DNA of 64,000 nt from Candidatus Bathyarchaeota archaeon B24 (lineage in GTDB: Archaea; Thermoproteota; CALKCG01; B24), in the NCBI GenBank assembly GCA_001593865.1, contig LUCB01000010.1, positions 4,441-68,440 of the forward strand, read 5' to 3'. Of this stretch, positions 4,190 to 34,538 are shown piece by piece (the stretch's first letter is position 1; each line of letters begins with the position of its first letter). The notes beneath the pieces were generated by a model. It had not been told where the DNA came from. It did no database searches and worked only from the letters and a program-made list of their open reading frames with translations. Position numbers and translations under genes: made by a program.

Positions 4190-5157
4190 GCGACTTTACG
4201 ACCCTTTTCCACATCTTTCAGACCCGGTTCCTTTTTACTACATATGTCCATCGCGTATGGGCATCTAGGGTGAAACCTACAACCAGAAGGAGGATTTATA
4301 GGGCTGGGAACCTCCCCCTTGATGGGGATCTCCCCTATTTTCACCCTGGGATCCGGGACCGGTATCGCGGCTGTTAGAGCTTTGGTATATGGGTGTAAGG
4401 GGTTGTCTATGACCTCTGTGGCTTCTCCCAACTCTACGACCTTACCGAGGTACATGATCGCTATTCTATCGCATATGTGTTTAGCCACGGCTAAGTCGTG
4501 GGTTATAAAGAGGTAAGCTATCCCGTACCGGTCTCTTATGCCGAGCATAAGGTCGAGTATCTCGGCTCTTATGGACATGTCGAGCATCGACACAGGCTCG
4601 TCCGCCACTATGAATTCTGGCTGAAGTATTATCGCCCTAGCTATGGCAACCCTCTGCCTCTGCCCGCCGCTGAGCTCGTGAGGATACCTGTACATAAACT
4701 CCTCAGGAGGCTTCAAGGCCACGTCCTCCAAGGTCTTGGTCACTCTTTCGATAACTTCCTCCCTGTTATGGGCCAATTTATGGATGGATAAGGGCTCGGA
4801 GATTATGTCGATAACCCTCATATGGGGGTTGAGGGACTCGTATGGGTCTTGGAATATTATCTGAGCTTTTCTACGGAACTCGATGAGCTCTTCCCCGTCT
4901 AGATTTGTGATATCTACCCCCTTGAAAAGTATCCTCCCGGCCGTAGGCTCTTCAAGCCTCAGTATCAACCTTCCGGTCGTCGTCTTACCGCATCCAGATT
5001 CGCCGGCTAGGCAGAATATCTCACCACGCTTTATCGCGAAGCTCACCCCATCCACAGCCCTGATGAACTTAGGCGGCCGCCGTAGTATGATGTCCGCTAG
5101 CCCCCTTCTCACGGGAAACCACTTCTTCAACCCGTCTGCTTCGACCACGTTCTCCAA
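4171..5157 (-). CDS. oppF: Oligopeptide ABC ATP-binding protein (OppF)
   Basis: Walker A GESGCGKT, ELSGGQRQR, ADEP, C-terminal GCRFHPRC...VACH domain. Confidence 0.93.
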   Translation of the reverse strand: MENVVEADGLKKWFPVRRGLADIILRRPPKFIRAVDGVSFAIKRGEIFCLAGESGCGKTTTGRLILRLEEPTAGRILFKGVDITNLDGEELIEFRRKAQIIFQDPYESLNPHMRVIDIISEPLSIHKLAHNREEVIERVTKTLEDVALKPPEEFMYRYPHELSGGQRQRVAIARAIILQPEFIVADEPVSMLDMSIRAEILDLMLGIRDRYGIAYLFITHDLAVAKHICDRIAIMYLGKVVELGEATEVIDNPLHPYTKALTAAIPVPDPRVKIGEIPIKGEVPSPINPPSGCRFHPRCPYAMDICSKKEPGLKDVEKGRKVACHLYG

Positions 5158-28754: not shown

Positions 28755-29419
28755 CCGTCTACCTGGACGACGGGCATAGACCCTAGGATTTCCCTAGCCC
28801 ACCGTTTAACCACGTCGTCGACGTGTACGACCACGACCCCCTCGCCGGGCTGACCGTAGAGTACTACAGACCCGGGTGGAGCCTCCGCTATCGCGACCAA
28901 CGCTAGAAGGTCCTCCTCACCTCTGACCCTAACCCAGCATCTATGGTCTTCCCTCAGACACTTCCTTATGGCCTCTTCGGCCTCAGACGATATATGGCCT
29001 GGGGGGTTAAAGACCATTCGAACCGCATCTACCACGGTCTCAAGTTTAGGCTCCTTTCTCTCGACGCGTAGGCTCCTAGCGTCTGTGATGTACAAGTCGG
29101 CTTCCAACCCCATCTCCAGCAAGGTTTCAGACACGACGTCTCCGACGGCCACGGTCTTAAGAGGCCGAGAAGCCTCTAGGATCCTCCTAACCTCTACGCT
29201 GGTCTCCCAGGGCTTCCCTCTGATGAGCCTCCCGACCGGTTTTTTAAGCAACACCCTAAGCTCATCTGTCAAAACCCTCAGAAACGGTCGACCCGGTTCT
29301 CCCAAGGACCTATCCTCCCGCCGAAGCCCGTGAACGGTGATACTAACTACATAGATGCGAGACTCCCCCTTAACCCTTATCGACCCGCTACATAAGCTTA
29401 GTTTCATACATTTTGTCAT
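28751..29419 (-). CDS. GTP-dependent dephospho-CoA kinase (DUF359 family); true start likely near 29305
   Basis: [33 protein letters not shown]. Confidence 0.85.
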
Positions 29420-29434
29420 ACAAAATGTTTATAT
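29408..29434 (+). promoter_or_regulatory. Probable antitoxin operator palindrome abutting a TATA box
   Basis: ACATTTTGT-CAT-ACAAAATGT (29408-29428) followed by TTTATAT. Confidence 0.6.
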
Positions 29435-29469
29435 TCTGTATCACTATTTGTCTCACGTCAAGTGGTATT

Positions 29470-29685
29470 TTGTCCTCGACCTTTACGATACGCATACCTG
29501 AGGAGCTTAAGAAGAAGATGAAGGAGTTTAAAATAGAGTGGAGCGTCGAGGTTAGGAGGTTCATAGAGGAACGGATCAGACAGCTTGAGCTTATGAAGTT
29601 GATCAAGGAGGTTGAGTTTAGGTCTGAAGGGAGGAGAGTCAGCGTAGATTCTGCGGAGTTAATCAGGGAGGATAGGGAACGTTGA
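29470..29685 (+). CDS. Ribbon-helix-helix (CopG-like) antitoxin; start reassigned to TTG 29470
   Basis: MSSTFTIRIPEELKKKM...WSVEVRRFIEE...SAELIREDRER. Confidence 0.85.
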   Translation: MSSTFTIRIPEELKKKMKEFKIEWSVEVRRFIEERIRQLELMKLIKEVEFRSEGRRVSVDSAELIREDRER

Positions 29686-30107
29686 ACCTGGTTTTAGACT
29701 CGAATATTATCATAAAGCTTGTGATAACCGAACCCGGCTCTGAGGAGGTTAGAAAATTCATATTGGAGTCTCTGGAGAAAGGTGCTTCGATATATAGCGT
29801 GGATATAGCCTTAGCTGAGGCTCTGAACGCTCTGTGGAAACACGTGAGCATACATAGAGATCTAAAGGTCGAGGATGCCGAATCAGCTGCCGAAGACTTA
29901 GCTAGGATATATGGTAAACTGAACATCGTAGCGACAGGTGAGGTTTCAAGGGAAGCCCTAAAGCTCTCTTTAACCCATAACATTACGGTGTATGACGCCC
30001 TTTACATAGCGGCTGCACGGAAGTTGAAGGCCACGCTGTATACGGCGGATGGTAAGCTGTATCGTGTGGCAAGGAAGTTATCTTCCTCTAAACTGCTTGA
30101 GACTTAG
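29682..30107 (+). CDS. PIN-domain toxin (VapC)
   Basis: VLDSNIIIK, AEALNALWK, ITVYDALYIA, LYTADGKL. Confidence 0.9.
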   Translation: MNLVLDSNIIIKLVITEPGSEEVRKFILESLEKGASIYSVDIALAEALNALWKHVSIHRDLKVEDAESAAEDLARIYGKLNIVATGEVSREALKLSLTHNITVYDALYIAAARKLKATLYTADGKLYRVARKLSSSKLLET

Positions 30108-30184: not shown

Positions 30185-30913
30185 ATGTCGATCGTTGTCG
30201 AGACGAAAGATTTGAAGAAGGATTACTATCTTAAGGGAGAAGTCGTGCATGCTCTGCGGGGTATAAACCTGACGGTGGAAAGGGGTGAGTATCTATCGAT
30301 CATGGGTCCCTCCGGCAGCGGTAAGACCACGCTCTTCAACATGATCGGTGGTCTCGACGACCCGACATCTGGAGTCGTTCTGATCGACGGTATAGAGATA
30401 GCTAAGATGAGTAAGAAGGAGAAGGCTTGGCTGAGGGCTCATAAAGTGGGGTACATCTTCCAGACGTTCAACCTCATACCTGTTCTGACGGCTCTGGATA
30501 ACGTGGCTTTGCCCATGGTCTTCACGGGTAAGCCTAAGGAGGAGAGGATCAAGAAGGCTGAGGAGCTTCTAAAGCTAGTAGGTCTCGGAGACAGGCTTCA
30601 CCACAGGCCCACCGAGCTTTCGGGCGGCCAGCAGCAGAGGGTCGCTATCGCTAGGGCGTTAGCCAACGACCCCTCGATAATACTGGCGGATGAGCCTACC
30701 GGGAACCTAGACCTGAACACGGGCTTTGCTATCGTGAACCTTCTCTACAGGCTTAAGGTCGAGAGAAACACGACAGTCATATGCGCCACACACGACCTGA
30801 AGATGATCGACGTCTCAGACCGTATCGCGTGGATCAGAGACGGGCAGATAGAGCGTATAGAGAAGCGCCAGTCCGTCGCGTTAACATCTGAAGACCTCAA
30901 AATAGAGGTCTAA
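30185..30913 (+). CDS. ABC ATP-binding protein (LolD/MacB/FtsE-like), no adjacent permease
   Basis: [41 protein letters not shown]. Confidence 0.9.
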
Positions 30914-31138
30914 AGTCTTCTCCGGAAGCTGGAGATTATCCTCGAATATTTTCTAGCTAGATTTAAACATAATGTGACTCTACAACTTCTTCATTTCCGA
31001 AGGGCATATCCAAGCAGCGGAAGACATAGACCTATTCGCTCCGAATCCTCCATTGTTACTCCTCTGTCTTATTTTTCAGACCCGATGAATAAGCTTAAAT
31101 AACGGCTGCTCGCTCAAGCCTCTAGAGGTGTCAGCGGG

Positions 31139-31279
31139 GTGGACGGGTTGTCTGAGGAAGAAGAGCTTGAGGAAGAGTGGGAGGAGGAAGAAGAGGAGTG
31201 GGCCGAAGAGGAGGACTGGGAGTGGGAGGAGGAAGAGGAACTCGGTGAAGAGTGGGAGGAGGAAGAAGAGGAGTGGTAG
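31139..31279 (+). CDS. Unannotated 46-aa Glu/Trp-rich micro-protein (MDGLSEEEELEEEWEEEEEEWAEEEDWEWEEEEELGEEWEEEEEEW); alternative TTG start at 31148
   Basis: TATA CTTAAATA 31094-31101, SD GAGGTG 31125-31130, GTG start, TAG stop, in-frame GAG/GAA alternation, T-tract downstream. Confidence 0.72.
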   Translation: MDGLSEEEELEEEWEEEEEEWAEEEDWEWEEEEELGEEWEEEEEEW

Positions 31280-31336
31280 AACCCACCTGTTTTAGTAAAA
31301 TTTTTCTCTAGTTTCTAGGTTTTTGGATGTGTCCAT

Positions 31337-33133
31337 ATGGTTAGGGTCGCCGTTCTCGACAAGGAGAGGTGTAAACCTGAGGATTGTGGTCTAGTGTGCA
31401 TAAGGTTCTGCCCTCCTGTCAGGAACGGTTTAGACGCCATAAAGCTGGGTGAAGACGGTAAACCGGTCGTGAACGAGAGGCTCTGCGTCGGATGCGGTAT
31501 ATGCGTCAGGAAATGCCCGTTCAAGGCGTTGTCCATCGTAAACCTCCCCGAGGAGCTCGAAGAGGATTGCTCCCACAGGTTTGGGGTGAACGCCTTCAAG
31601 CTCTACCGCCTCCCCATACCGTCGCCGGGTAAAGTCACGGGTTTGGTCGGTAAGAACGGCGTCGGTAAGACCACCTCCTTGATGATACTCGCCGGCATCA
31701 TAAAACCCAACCTCGGCAGGCTCGATAAGCCTCCAGACTGGGATGAGATAATCGAATACTACGGCGGCTCACCGCTACAGGAGCATTTCAGAGGGCTTAG
31801 CTCAGGCTCTCTCAGAGTTGTCTATAAGCCCCAGTATGTGGATAAGATTCCTAGGGTATACAAGGGTGTGGTTAAGGAGCTTCTATCCAGGGTGGACGAG
31901 CGGGGGCTTATGGATGCGATATGCGACGAGCTTGAGCTTAACGAGGTTCTGAACAGAGACCTAGCCGTCTTAAGCGGTGGGGAGCTTCAGAGGGTCGCCG
32001 TGGCTGCTACGTGGCTTAGAGACGCGGATGTCTACTTCTTCGACGAGCCTTCGAGCTACTTAGACGTTAAACAGAGGCTATCCGTGGCGAGGGTCATAAG
32101 AAGACTCAGCGGGGAGGGTAAGGCGGTGGTCGTGAGCGAGCATGACCTAGCGATACTGGACTACCTGTCGGACCAGGTATGCATAATATACGGCAACCCG
32201 GGTGTATACGGGATCGTCTCCCGCCCACATCCCGTCAGAGAGGGGATAAACATCTTTCTCCGAGGATACATCCCAGACGAAAACATGCGTTTCAGGAGGG
32301 ATGAGATAAGGTTCCACGTCAAACCCCCGCTTGACAGACATAGCTCCGAGGAGAACGTCGTGGTCAGGTGGGGACGCCTCATCAAACGCTTCGAAGACTT
32401 CTCGCTTAAAGTAGAGCCCGGCGAGATAAGGGTGGGAGAGGTCATAGGTATCCTAGGCCCTAACGGGATAGGTAAGACGACGTTCGTTAAGATCCTGGCG
32501 GGTGTCTTAGAGCCGGATGAGGGCGAGGTCCCGTCTAAGACCCTGAGGATAAGCTATAAGCCCCAGTATCTCTCGGCTGAAGCCTACAGCGGCACGGTCG
32601 AAGAGCTTTTCAGAAAGGCTCTAGGTGACAAGCCTGTCTCGGGTTTCCTGGAAGAGGAGCTGATACAGCCCATGGGGATCTACAAGCTTCTCGAGAGGGA
32701 GGTTTCGAGCCTGAGCGGTGGGGAGCTTCAGAAGGTAGCTATAGCGCTGTGCCTGTCGAGAGACGCGGACCTCTACCTCCTAGACGAGCCGAGCGCATAC
32801 CTCGACGTCGAGGAGAGGTTCATAATGACCAAGGTCATCAGGAGGATCGTCGAAAACTTCAGGAAGGCCGCCCTCGTCGTAGAGCACGACCTCTCGGCCG
32901 CAGACTTCGTGGCAGACAGGCTTATGGTCTTCACAGGTAAACCAGGCTTAGAGGGTACGGCTTTAACCCCTATGCCGCTTAGACAGGGTATGAACACGTT
33001 CCTCAGAGAGCTCGACGTAACCTTCAGGAGAGACCCCGACACCGGTAGACCAAGGGTTAACAAGGAGGGGTCTAGGCTGGACCGGTATCAGAAGTCTATA
33101 GGCGAATACTACTACGCACCTGAGGAGGGGTAA
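31337..33133 (+). CDS. rli: Ribosome recycling ATPase ABCE1/Rli1
   Basis: N-terminal Fe-S domain (CKPEDC, CP, CVGCGICVRKCP), two ABC NBDs with LSGGELQ, TFRRD..TGRPRVNK. Confidence 0.96.
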   Translation: MVRVAVLDKERCKPEDCGLVCIRFCPPVRNGLDAIKLGEDGKPVVNERLCVGCGICVRKCPFKALSIVNLPEELEEDCSHRFGVNAFKLYRLPIPSPGKVTGLVGKNGVGKTTSLMILAGIIKPNLGRLDKPPDWDEIIEYYGGSPLQEHFRGLSSGSLRVVYKPQYVDKIPRVYKGVVKELLSRVDERGLMDAICDELELNEVLNRDLAVLSGGELQRVAVAATWLRDADVYFFDEPSSYLDVKQRLSVARVIRRLSGEGKAVVVSEHDLAILDYLSDQVCIIYGNPGVYGIVSRPHPVREGINIFLRGYIPDENMRFRRDEIRFHVKPPLDRHSSEENVVVRWGRLIKRFEDFSLKVEPGEIRVGEVIGILGPNGIGKTTFVKILAGVLEPDEGEVPSKTLRISYKPQYLSAEAYSGTVEELFRKALGDKPVSGFLEEELIQPMGIYKLLEREVSSLSGGELQKVAIALCLSRDADLYLLDEPSAYLDVEERFIMTKVIRRIVENFRKAALVVEHDLSAADFVADRLMVFTGKPGLEGTALTPMPLRQGMNTFLRELDVTFRRDPDTGRPRVNKEGSRLDRYQKSIGEYYYAPEEG

Positions 33134-33152: not shown

Positions 33153-34538
33153 CTAAGCCGTTACCCCCTCCTTAGCCAGTATGGACCTAGCCGCTATCAC
33201 ACCCGATACCGATGCCTGAGCAAGCCCTCTGGTCAAACCTGCACCGTCGCCCGCGACGTAAAGGTTCTTAATCTTCGTCTCGAGGTTTCTGCTCAGTTTA
33301 ACCCTGGCCGAGTAGAACTTGACCTCGACCCCGTAGAGAAGCGTGTGGTTCGAGTACACACCCGGGGCTAGCTGGTCTAGGGCCTCCAGCATCTCCAGTA
33401 TGTCCGTCAGATACCTGTAGGGTAGTACGAAACTTAGGTCTCCTGGCGTAGCGTTTTCCAGGGTGGGCTTCACGATGCTGCGTTTTATACGGTCGCGGGT
33501 CGACCTCCTACCTCTCTTGAGGTCTCCAAGCCTCTGGATTATGACGCCTCCGCCTATTATGTTCGCGAGTCTAGCTATGTACTTCCCGTATGCTATGGGC
33601 TCTTTGAAGGGCTCTGTGAAGGACACGCTGACTAGTACGGCGAAGTTCGTGTTATCCGTCTTCTTATCATGGTAGCTTTGACCGTTAACCGTTAAAACGT
33701 CCTCGTATATCTCGGTGATCACCTCACCGTGTGGGCATACGCAGAAGACCCTAACCATATCGTCGAAAGACTTCGAGTAGAACATGAACTTAGGCTCGTA
33801 GAGCACGTCGGTAAGATACTCCATCACGGCGGCCGGCACCTCAACCCTGATCCCCAGGTCTATCGGGTTGTTTTCGAGACCTAGGTTTAGACGCCTAGCC
33901 TCGTTCTGAAGCCACTCAGCACCGCTTCTACCAGGCGCTAAAACGACATATTTGGCCCTGTAGAAGTCTCCGTCACGTGTCTCGACCCCGACGACTTTCC
34001 CGTCGTCGACGACGATCCTCGAAACCTCTTTCCCAAACTTAACCTCGACTTTACCCTTCAGATAGTCTCTAGCCGCTTTCAACACGAACCTTGTCTTATC
34101 CGTACCCATGTGTCTAAGCGTCATAGGTATGAAGTTTAAACCCGCCAACGTGGCTTTCCTCTGGATGTCCTCTATGAAATCCCTATCTCCTCCGTAAAGT
34201 CTATCGGGCGCCCCGAACTTGAGGTAGAACCTATCCACGTACGTCATAAGGTTCTTGAGCTCGTCTCTAGTTATGTAGTCTATGAGCCACCCGCCTACGT
34301 CTGGAGACAGTATGAGCTTTCCGTCGCTGAACGCCCCAGCTCCACCCCAGCCGTTCAATAAATGGCAAGGTCTACAGCTCCTAGTGCAGGTCCCAGACGT
34401 TAAAGCCGGGCATATACGCTTCTCTATATCGTAGCCTTTCTCGAGCATGAGCACCGAGAGGTTGCTTTTCTCGGTAAGCTCTAGAGCCGCAAATATGCCC
34501 GCTGGCCCACATCCTACTATCACTACGTCGTACTGCAA
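33153..34538 (-). CDS. Uncharacterised FAD-dependent oxidoreductase
   Basis: VIVGCGPAG, GWGGAGAFSDGKL, FCVCPHG, YVAGDGAGLTRG. Confidence 0.85.
   Translation of the reverse strand: MQYDVVIVGCGPAGIFAALELTEKSNLSVLMLEKGYDIEKRICPALTSGTCTRSCRPCHLLNGWGGAGAFSDGKLILSPDVGGWLIDYITRDELKNLMTYVDRFYLKFGAPDRLYGGDRDFIEDIQRKATLAGLNFIPMTLRHMGTDKTRFVLKAARDYLKGKVEVKFGKEVSRIVVDDGKVVGVETRDGDFYRAKYVVLAPGRSGAEWLQNEARRLNLGLENNPIDLGIRVEVPAAVMEYLTDVLYEPKFMFYSKSFDDMVRVFCVCPHGEVITEIYEDVLTVNGQSYHDKKTDNTNFAVLVSVSFTEPFKEPIAYGKYIARLANIIGGGVIIQRLGDLKRGRRSTRDRIKRSIVKPTLENATPGDLSFVLPYRYLTDILEMLEALDQLAPGVYSNHTLLYGVEVKFYSARVKLSRNLETKIKNLYVAGDGAGLTRGLAQASVSGVIAARSILAKEGVTA

Follow-up and report, generated by a model that had tools for sequence, protein, structure and literature searches.

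A family of Glu/Trp micro-genes found beside ABCE1 in Thermoproteota

ABCE1 is the twin-nucleotide-binding-domain (twin-NBD) translation ATPase of archaea. Few archaeal or eukaryotic proteins are as conserved or as essential, and we know of no small dedicated ABCE1 partner in archaea. The stalk protein aP1 is reported to bind NBD1 of archaeal ABCE1 through its conserved hydrophobic C terminus, which is needed for ATPase activation (PMC6125642). In eukaryotes, Lto1-Yae1 is described as serving Rli1/ABCE1 alone, and the C-terminal Trp of Lto1 is needed to bind the targeting complex of the cytosolic iron-sulfur (Fe-S) protein assembly (CIA) pathway (PMC4523923). Clients and adaptors of that complex are reported to carry the signal [LIM]-[DES]-[WF]-COO- (PMC10245660); CIAO2B is reported to supply the hydrophobic cavities of the receiving pocket, with its arginines holding the acidic residues (PMC12910081). 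Acidic runs also affect the ribosomes that make them. Such destabilization is documented (PMC9718836, PMC11162784): N-terminal Asp/Glu runs are reported to abort translation in bacteria and eukaryotes (PMC9718836), and the twin-NBD ABCF ATPases of Escherichia coli to relieve poly-acidic destabilization (PMC11162784). Here we describe a 46-codon open reading frame (ORF), rich in Glu and Trp codons, that lies directly 5' of ABCE1 in Candidatus Bathyarchaeota archaeon B24, together with the family to which it belongs. The DNA analyzed, called the window below, is the whole stretch of 64,000 nucleotides (nt) at positions 4,441 to 68,440 (forward strand) of contig LUCB01000010.1, assembly GCA_001593865.1; coordinates without a prefix are positions in the window.

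The micro-gene, its family, and its codon record

The ORF is very probably a real translated gene, and the family to which it belongs is undescribed and unannotated. In what follows, L001 is the window locus, L002 is its closest relative (ABCE1 95% identical), G000 is the window's genome, and f-numbers are arbitrary family labels. The features of the locus are as follows.

31093-31103 (about), + strand: candidate promoter with the TATA-like sequence gcTTAAATAac, about 40 nt 5' of the GTG; the same box is present in L002, L003, L005, and L006
31125-31130, + strand: Shine-Dalgarno (SD)-like GAGGTG, 8 nt 5' of GTG 31139
31139-31279, + strand: Glu/Trp micro-protein gene, GTG start to TAG stop, 46 codons (43 codons from the alternative start TTG 31148)
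31154-31201, + strand: internal repeat copy 1, 48 nt (16 codons), EEEELEEEWEEEEEEW, the reference copy of the repeat comparison
31229-31276, + strand: internal repeat copy 2, EEEELGEEWEEEEEEW, 90% identical over 48 nt, which supplies the C-terminal EEEEW
31280-31336, + strand: spacer between the micro-gene and ABCE1, 57 nt, with a T-rich/A+T tract, TTTTAGTAAAATTTTT, read at about 31290-31305
31337-33133, + strand: ABCE1, ATG at 31337, 598 amino acids (aa), a ribosome-recycling twin-ABC ATPase with an N-terminal 2x[4Fe-4S] domain (Pfam Fer4_RLI, Fer4, and two ABC_tran)

Besides its start residue, the 46-aa product contains 30 Glu, 2 Asp, 6 Trp, 3 Leu, 2 Gly, 1 Ser, and 1 Ala. There is no Lys, Arg, His, or Cys; the protein ends in EEEEEEW, with Trp as the C-terminal residue, and its net charge is about -32. 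The start is not settled between GTG 31139 and TTG 31148, and L002 keeps both codons. Glu is encoded by 19 GAG and 11 GAA codons. An exact 30-nt repeat (31172-31201 = 31247-31276) is the core of the 48-nt repeat, whose copies lie 75 nt (25 codons) apart, giving an in-frame duplication. The initial annotation of this DNA had described the ORF with its Glu, Asp, and Trp counts, its lack of basic residues, and its C-terminal Trp; the mixed GAG/GAA codons; a TATA box and an SD ahead of it; and a 57-bp gap with a T-tract before ABCE1. All of these were found again, as was the identity of ABCE1 from its domains, and the 30-bp duplication that it had reported proved to extend to 48 nt.

In a six-frame scan of the 1,731,399-base genome (64,205 segments between stop codons, with a minimum length of 15 aa), the micro-ORF was the sole segment with at least 12 Asp or Glu among its last 20 residues and the sole site with at least 12 in any 15-aa window. 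Thus, it is not one of many low-complexity ORFs.

The codon record points clearly to purifying selection at the protein level. In groups of equal-length homologs, we sorted the variable codon columns into those with only synonymous differences and those with an amino acid change. Between the window and L002 there were 8 synonymous and 0 amino acid changes, all 8 at the third position. The corresponding counts of columns were 19 versus 0 in family f4, 15 versus 1 and 15 versus 2 in two sets from family f14, and 14 versus 1 and 5 versus 1 in two sets from family f7. An element selected purely for purines would accept G/A exchange at the first and second codon positions; since such exchange is practically absent across the homologs, the constraint is on the Glu and Trp codons and not on purine content. 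A strain variant, read only from two long metagenome contigs among matches from four public DNA runs (the other matches were mostly foreign Glu-rich genes), has five differences in the ORF, at 31177, 31192, 31204, 31240, and 31249; all are at codon position 3, and there is no indel. Length differences among the homologs preserve the frame, as had been expected of a gene. A 3-nt insertion at 31203 and 4+1+1-nt deletions near 31238-31246 came from short partial matches and were not used.

These data also bear on whether the sequence is a gene at all. It might instead be a purine-rich GA repeat, acting as a DNA or RNA element or as a sponge for SD-like sequences, or a chance low-complexity ORF. 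It is 83% purine, with 7 GGAGG and 13 GAGG words; its internal duplication is typical of slippage-prone repeats; and protein databases and family libraries do not recognize it. We consider this explanation extremely unlikely. The frame, start signals, TGG codons, and TGG-stop end are kept while third positions vary, and the DNA pattern for EEEEW-stop (described below) is found about 15 times as often as its reversed control. GAG makes up no larger a share of Glu codons in the ORF (19/30) than in the genome (0.74), and the copies in family f15 use mostly GAA and have no GGAGG; hence there is no selection for SD-like words, and the same two facts rule out the sponge idea.

We searched 201 loci for ORFs that end in Trp and have at least 10 Asp or Glu among their last 16 residues. 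Such a micro-ORF is present in 117 of them and, leaving aside a fused form, is 18 to 59 aa long from the most plausible start. The N terminus is Met followed by one to eight bulky hydrophobic or basic residues (MIF, MVF, MFRF, MIWL, MPIWYYR, MSRKK..). The middle consists of three to seven Glu(3-8)-Trp units, in which Phe at times replaces Trp and the unit is at times WP or WG. The end is an invariant Glu(4-8)-Trp; all 117 have a C-terminal Trp after acidic residues ([DE][DE]W), which is partly the finder's own criterion. The window ORF has the traits by which we define the family, namely, a length of 18 to 59 aa, at least 10 Asp or Glu in the last 16 residues, repeated E(n)-W units, a C-terminal Trp, and the form of a single small ORF with its own SD.

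Members of the family carry expression signals of their own. Among 114 distinct upstream regions, most have GGAGGTG-type motifs 5 to 9 nt 5' of the start. TATA-like boxes peak 50 to 65 nt upstream, with 67 of 165 motif matches falling in the three bins from -65 to -50 (80 nt scanned). In family f14, TTTATAAATAG lies about 28 nt 5' of the ATG, which by the general geometry of archaeal promoters is the spacing of leaderless genes. The SD-like GAGGTG is weak in the window's genus, as it is lost in L002 and the strain variant has G>A at 31130. A sigma-70 and terminator scan gave nothing useful, those models being unsuited to archaea.

T-rich tracts follow the stop codon in most homologs. In family f15, where the gap to ABCE1 is 120 to 214 nt, a conserved TTTATAA comes after the T-rich tract, about 35 to 43 nt 5' of the ABCE1 ATG, and by these signals the two genes look like separate transcription units. 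The tract in the window's own spacer could be a terminator of the micro-gene, the TATA box of ABCE1, or both. Gaps in the window's own family are 57 to 102 nt, and co-transcription of the micro-gene with ABCE1 is possible there.

The micro-gene has been missed because it is short and because its composition is invisible to HMMER, word indexes, and family libraries. No match to the micro-protein was found in Pfam (E up to 10) or NCBIfam, nor by hmmsearch with the family alignment against 1.84 billion representative proteins; a word-index homolog search gave 1 word-sharing candidate, which did not score. Word and profile searches are blind to this family, as would be expected from their composition filters, and these nulls say nothing on its absence. 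None of 9 micro-proteins, with chosen starts, was found by exact look-up in a protein collection. The ESM Atlas has an entry identical to the 46-aa sequence, and the best look-alikes (≤0.77) are in the chance range. Literature searches on archaeal ABCE1, small proteins, and acidic Trp peptides turned up no description of such a peptide. Well over a third of sampled Thermoproteota have a gene that annotation has passed over.

Distribution and gene neighborhood

ABCE1 orthologs are present in 41 of 41 relatives of the window's genome. In the 700 nt scanned 5' of ABCE1, 18 of the 28 relatives' loci with enough upstream DNA (two further loci are cut by contig ends) have a same-strand E/W ORF ending in ...EEEEW-stop, which bears out the expectation that relatives would have short Asp/Glu- and Trp-rich ORFs at this place. 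We also fetched 80 loci from named species genomes by ABCE1 similarity and examined up to 3 kb on each side. An E/W ORF lies 69 to 440 nt 5' of ABCE1 in 12 of the 23 loci labeled Bathyarchaeia or Bathyarchaeota; among the 57 non-Bathyarchaeia loci (Thermoplasmata, Thor-, Hel-, and other Asgard archaea, one Thermofilaceae, and others), none has one within 3 kb of ABCE1.

A search independent of ABCE1 used a DNA motif of four Glu codons, TGG, and a stop-like triplet, with the reversed pattern as the control. We found this EEEEW-stop pattern in 154 of the 401 Thermoproteota genomes, in most of them once, versus 12 control matches, and in 13 of the 17 genomes of the window's own class, versus 0. 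Families that bear it include f14 (23/23), f15 (21/25), f12 (21/32), f7 (13/16), f4 (4/4), f6 (4/4), and f20 (5/5). All counts with the strict pattern are lower bounds, as variants such as ...EEEEDEW (L009, L011) are missed. Elsewhere the pattern is at background: 10 of 201 genomes versus 9 control matches in the phylum that includes the Thorarchaeota record (Asgard), where none of six cases with a real stop is a Glu/Trp micro-ORF, and 3 of 151 genomes versus 14 control matches in Thermoplasmatota. The micro-gene family is spread over several Thermoproteota classes, is limited to Thermoproteota in the samples searched, and is much broader than the initial annotation, which was made from the window alone, could see.

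Two side observations came from these searches. In two genomes of the Thorarchaeota record's phylum (G440 and G419; loci L225 and L226), a protein of about 400 aa ends in KEEEEW or MEEEEW, with a C-terminal region that looks, by eye, like the alpha subunit of 2-oxoacid:ferredoxin oxidoreductase; such an end on an Asgard enzyme of the Fe-S pathway may be of interest beside the eukaryotic terminal-Trp signal. The ABCE1 matches in the family f10 genomes G022 (C1:22819-24597) and G037 (C9:42083-43861) have one in-frame TAG each, and those in G030 and G040 one in-frame TGA each, which could be recoding, error, or pseudogenes.

The link between the micro-gene and ABCE1 is real and old and has survived inversions. 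The strict pattern occurs in 25 of the 41 relatives, ≤2 kb from ABCE1 in 19, elsewhere in 5, and at an undecidable distance in 1 (G002, contig break). ABCE1 is downstream on the same strand within the 1.5-kb flank at 26 of 30 loci picked by the pattern. At 40 further pattern loci (one or two per family), ABCE1 is within 3 kb in 21 (17 co-directional, 3 divergent, and 1 other). Taking all 117 micro-ORF loci, a sample that is biased in that part of it was chosen by ABCE1, 74 are co-directional with ABCE1, 8 are on the opposite strand, and 35 have no ABCE1 in the locus; the gap has a median of 131.5 nt and a range of 42 to 1369 nt, and about 28 gaps are ≤100 nt.

The arrangement varies among families. 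Divergent loci are L149-L156, L169, L170, and L197. Family f7 has the micro-gene divergent from an operon that comprises a zinc-ribbon gene of about 100 aa (RPB9/TFS-N type), ABCE1, and a next gene; in family f12 the same zinc-ribbon gene separates ABCE1 from the micro-gene. Where copies are unlinked, in families f14, f19, f27, f32, and f47, the surroundings differ. In family f14 (L141-L145), with ABCE1 about 0.8 Mb off, the micro-gene is directly 5' of genes for S-adenosylmethionine (AdoMet) decarboxylase (PF02675) and a SIS-domain protein, on the same strand. Its neighbors in family f27, as in G023, are an unknown gene of about 350 aa on one side and an AbrB-PhoU gene on the other. It stands ahead of an Obg-like GTPase gene in family f30 and tail-to-tail with aEF2 in family f45. 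One genome of family f15, G028, has three micro-ORFs (C1:15217, C11:170336, and C55:48449). A fused form exists in family f26, where a LysW-type zinc ribbon (PF21344, 30.4 bits, cutoff 27) carries the Glu/Trp tail; the fusion protein also matches FYDLN_acid (PF09538, 24.0 bits, cutoff 23.9) and, below the cutoff of 75, NCBIfam LysW/ArgW (38.6 bits).

One of the two models in the initial annotation is a cis-acting leader or upstream ORF: translation of poly-Glu would destabilize or stall ribosomes and so, by termination at the T-tract or by re-initiation, set the ABCE1 level, giving a feedback sensor of ribosome stability or recycling. The 74 co-directional loci of that biased sample, with their short gaps, are consistent with it, as are the T-rich tracts after the stop, the SD that ABCE1 has of its own, like internal cistrons, and the published effects of acidic runs and of twin-NBD ABCF ATPases on translation. 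As a general mechanism, however, this model is contradicted by the arrangements above. The micro-gene is divergent in family f7 and at L169, L170, and L197, is unlinked in at least 9 families, and in family f12 is separated from ABCE1 by the zinc-ribbon gene; the f15 gap contains the conserved TTTATAA, a TATA box for ABCE1, and gaps reach 1369 nt. The invariant C-terminal Trp and the fusion to a folded domain are traits of a functional product rather than of a leader. The micro-gene region folds no better than shuffles (z = +1.15), with no conserved or unusually stable RNA structure, and has no match in Rfam, which speaks against a known RNA family or stable RNA structure. We therefore regard a cis leader as quite unlikely overall, but it keeps some weight for the short-gap lineages.

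Several neighbors deserve record in their own right. The protein of about 100 aa encoded directly 5' of ABCE1 in families f7 and f12 has a zinc ribbon, a segment ..SKR..T..ATE..LSPEEREILREYYE.., and an acidic tail (L149:4266-4553, L150:2805-3107, L151:3494-3784, L152:4249-4575, L154:4234-4545, L155:2807-3121, and L020:1171-1473). It is below every NCBIfam cutoff (TFS, 34 to 36 bits versus 64.75), and its gene is a second unexplained ABCE1-linked gene. The f14 micro-gene (L141-L145) is divergent from a conserved gene of 190 to 200 aa of no known kind, which is followed by an aconitase-like ORF. The conserved neighbors in f7 (about 170 aa) and f14 (about 190 aa) were considered as homologs and rejected (BLASTP E 0.2; hhalign probability 0.6%), and neither gene was found in G000. 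The two extra G028 copies (L200 and L201) and the f19 copy L162 adjoin a protein of about 140 to 250 aa with the motif ..FWE...EK...VLK..NQ..LLKR.RE.RK.. and no Pfam or NCBIfam match. The f26 fusion protein is 74 to 90 aa long (L175:3004-3273, - strand; also L173 and L174), and its gene adjoins ORFs that by eye are TldD/PmbA-like and antiporter-like.

In the window itself, a 461-aa ORF of FAD-binding type by eye (33153-34538, - strand) is convergent with ABCE1, which leaves ABCE1 and the micro-gene by themselves as a block of two genes on the + strand. On the other side, 5' of the micro-gene, lie a 242-aa ORF named by eye as an ABC-type ATPase (30185-30913) and, at 29413-30107, a small ORF overlapping a 141-aa ORF, by eye a VapB/VapC (PIN) pair. 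The window's genome encodes a full-length reverse gyrase (G000 C6:50045-53656; 1334 bits, over the cutoff), and the public DNA runs in which the window's sequence occurs bear labels of hydrothermal vent or sediment metagenomes. A thermophilic host is probable, from a small Thermoproteota class (17 species sampled).

Possible modes of action

The reading that we prefer, and think rather likely, is that the product is an independently expressed, acidic, probably disordered micro-protein that would act in trans by docking in the ABCE1 pathway. That it acts in trans, rather than as a leader, is probable, because divergent, unlinked, duplicated, and fused forms exist. That its partner is in the ABCE1 pathway has, in our estimate, an even chance. 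The micro-protein would be a free-standing acidic tail with an aromatic tip. Its Trp side chains, above all the C-terminal Trp with its free carboxylate, would plug basic-rimmed hydrophobic pockets of the partner, for which the candidates are ABCE1 and proteins that take part in its maturation or regulation. The proposal is drawn by analogy from the acidic C-terminal tail of aP1 and its docking on ABCE1 NBD1. By analogy with work on bulky residues in the exit tunnel, the bulky N-terminal residues and regular Trp spacing of the family may be what enables completion of its poly-acidic chain. The other model of the initial annotation, a trans-acting stalk or nucleic acid mimic with acidic-aromatic motifs, is thus favored in its general form by the divergent, unlinked, and fused copies; its specific form, stalk mimicry with binding to ABCE1, is a candidate only, and the C-terminal motif is E-E-W and not the L..LF of the stalk.

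That difference in motif is one of several points that weigh against docking in the ABCE1 pathway. Among the 24 decidable relatives, five (G023, G026, G033, G035, and G040) have the pattern away from ABCE1, with the micro-gene about 0.8 Mb from it or on another contig, and at 19 of the 40 family-spread loci ABCE1 is absent within 3 kb of the micro-gene. The neighbors at unlinked copies are unrelated to one another (AdoMet decarboxylase, hypD/hypF, the AbrB-PhoU gene, a methyltransferase, aEF2, and the Obg-like GTPase); therefore, the partner need not be ABCE1. The strict pattern was not found in families f5 (0/57), f18 (0/24), f10 (0/17), f13 (0/17), f29 (0/15), f16 (0/12), and f25 (0/12). Since many Thermoproteota families thus have ABCE1 without the pattern, ABCE1 does not need the micro-protein. 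The net charge of the ABCE1 domains shows no difference between genomes that have the micro-gene and those that do not. A predicted complex of ABCE1 and the micro-protein, which scored 0.00 in two runs made without control runs, carries no weight either way.

Some of the same facts would fit a general polyanion, that is, a nucleic acid mimic, a chaperone or shield for very basic proteins of the ribosome or chromatin, or a means of buffering Mg2+ or polyamines, whose tie to ABCE1 would reflect only the co-expression of translation genes. The net charge over 46 aa without a single basic residue is in keeping with this role, and strong SD and promoter signals suggest high expression. So are the varied neighbors at unlinked copies, among them AdoMet decarboxylase, an enzyme of polyamine synthesis, downstream in f14, and the several copies in G028. 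We consider it unlikely, however, because the invariant C-terminal Trp and regular Trp spacing favor specific docking over bulk charge, and because the micro-gene adjoins one gene, ABCE1, across about 19 families and in both orientations. There is also no tie to hyperthermophily. Reverse gyrase and the micro-gene pattern are found, respectively, in 1/25 versus 21/25 genomes of f15, 12/12 versus 0/12 of f16, and 23/24 versus 0/24 of f18; with no family-level association, a role in thermoadaptation is ruled out.

A more specific alternative is that the micro-protein is an adaptor or tag for Fe-S delivery, its acidic-acidic-Trp-COO- end bringing an Fe-S carrier, such as a CIAO2-like DUF59 protein, to the Fe-S domain of ABCE1. 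The precedents are those of Lto1, the CIA clients, and CIAO2B given at the outset. The end is always [DE][DE]W, the micro-gene adjoins the gene of the one archaeal protein whose eukaryotic ortholog needs such an adaptor, and G000 has one CIAO2-like gene (DUF59/PF01883, at C28:67707-68066), which adjoins a small ferredoxin gene. However, position -2 is Glu and not Leu, Ile, or Met; the family is at background in Asgard genomes, so that any similarity would be convergent; the repeated internal E-W units are left unexplained; and close DUF59 homologs are patchy among micro-gene carriers. CIAO1, which forms half of the eukaryotic pocket, and a receptor complex are, to our knowledge, not known in archaea. 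We rate this explanation as improbable. In a combined form, to which we give the same small credence, a single peptide of 20 to 50 residues would bind ABCE1 by its Glu-Trp units and show its acidic-Trp-COO- end to a CIAO2-like (DUF59) Fe-S carrier, like Lto1-Yae1. If Fe-S delivery were its role, targeting of clients by a terminal Trp would have arisen independently in, or would predate, the archaeal lineage, and the micro-protein would be the first handle on cluster delivery to archaeal ABCE1.

Under the preferred docking reading, the micro-protein is an overlooked partner candidate for an essential, much-studied ATPase and is open to direct tests with synthetic peptides. If it binds ABCE1 or the machinery that matures ABCE1, it would make the regulation of ribosome recycling, or its Fe-S loading, accessible to experiment. 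Its sequence is besides an extreme example from nature of a poly-acidic chain of the kind that ribosomes translate badly and could serve as a probe for archaeal ribosomes, which, as far as we know, are without ABCF factors. More generally, composition-aware scans recover conserved micro-proteins that standard pipelines overlook.

Comparison with known systems

Judged by its sequence, the micro-protein resembles acidic docking tails and appears to be a member of none of the described groups: the stalk motif, position -2 of the CIA targeting-complex-recognition (TCR) signal, and the zinc ribbon of LysW all differ or are absent. MgtL-type leaders are alike in being short ORFs, acidic from the N terminus, that lie 5' of a regulated gene with a T-tract between. 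They are unlike the micro-gene in that the latter has a conserved peptide sequence and C-terminal Trp, its own promoter, and divergent or unlinked copies.

DSS1/Sem1 proteins are tiny, acidic, and disordered, and they are held on the complexes of their partners by conserved Trp residues. The micro-protein shares the very small size and the acidity, and an anchoring Trp is a feature of DSS1. Its composition is far more extreme, however, and the rule of a C-terminal Trp is not that of DSS1. The DSS1_SEM1 family was among the Pfam families without a match at E up to 10, a search in which the composition filters of HMMER may hide weak matches.

The LysW/ArgW carriers and FYDLN_acid are small proteins in which an acidic tail is the working part, and in LysW the C-terminal Glu is the attachment site of the carrier function. 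The f26 fusion, with its LysW-type ribbon, is the nearest form to these. The window protein differs in having no zinc ribbon and no Cys and in ending in Trp, and no genes of lysine or arginine biosynthesis are near the micro-gene, whose neighbors in the window are the ABC ATPase and ABCE1.

The TCR signal, as in Lto1-Yae1, likewise consists of a C-terminal Trp that follows an acidic residue and has a free carboxylate, as these sources report it (PMC10245660, PMC12910081). The micro-protein agrees with two of the three positions of [LIM]-[DES]-[WF]-COO-, position -2 being Glu in the window and its homologs. Both are tied to ABCE1: for Lto1 the tie is reported to be functional (PMC4523923), whereas that of the micro-gene is known from gene neighborhood. 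The Lto1-Yae1 adaptor differs in its deca-GX3 domain, which the micro-protein lacks, and the micro-gene family is not above background in Asgard.

The stalk tail of aP1 differs in that the micro-protein is free-standing, without a dimerization or P0-binding domain, and has several internal Trp units. Its end, EEEEEEW, also departs from that of the aP1 encoded in the window's genome, where an acidic run is followed by ALEGLSALFG (...EEEEEEALEGLSALFG), and does not have the L..LF motif. The two are alike in being acidic runs that end in a hydrophobic or aromatic residue at a free C terminus, and the aP1 tail is reported to dock on NBD1 of archaeal ABCE1 (PMC6125642). The micro-gene, for its part, adjoins the gene for ABCE1 and, in single families, those for aEF2 and the Obg-like GTPase.

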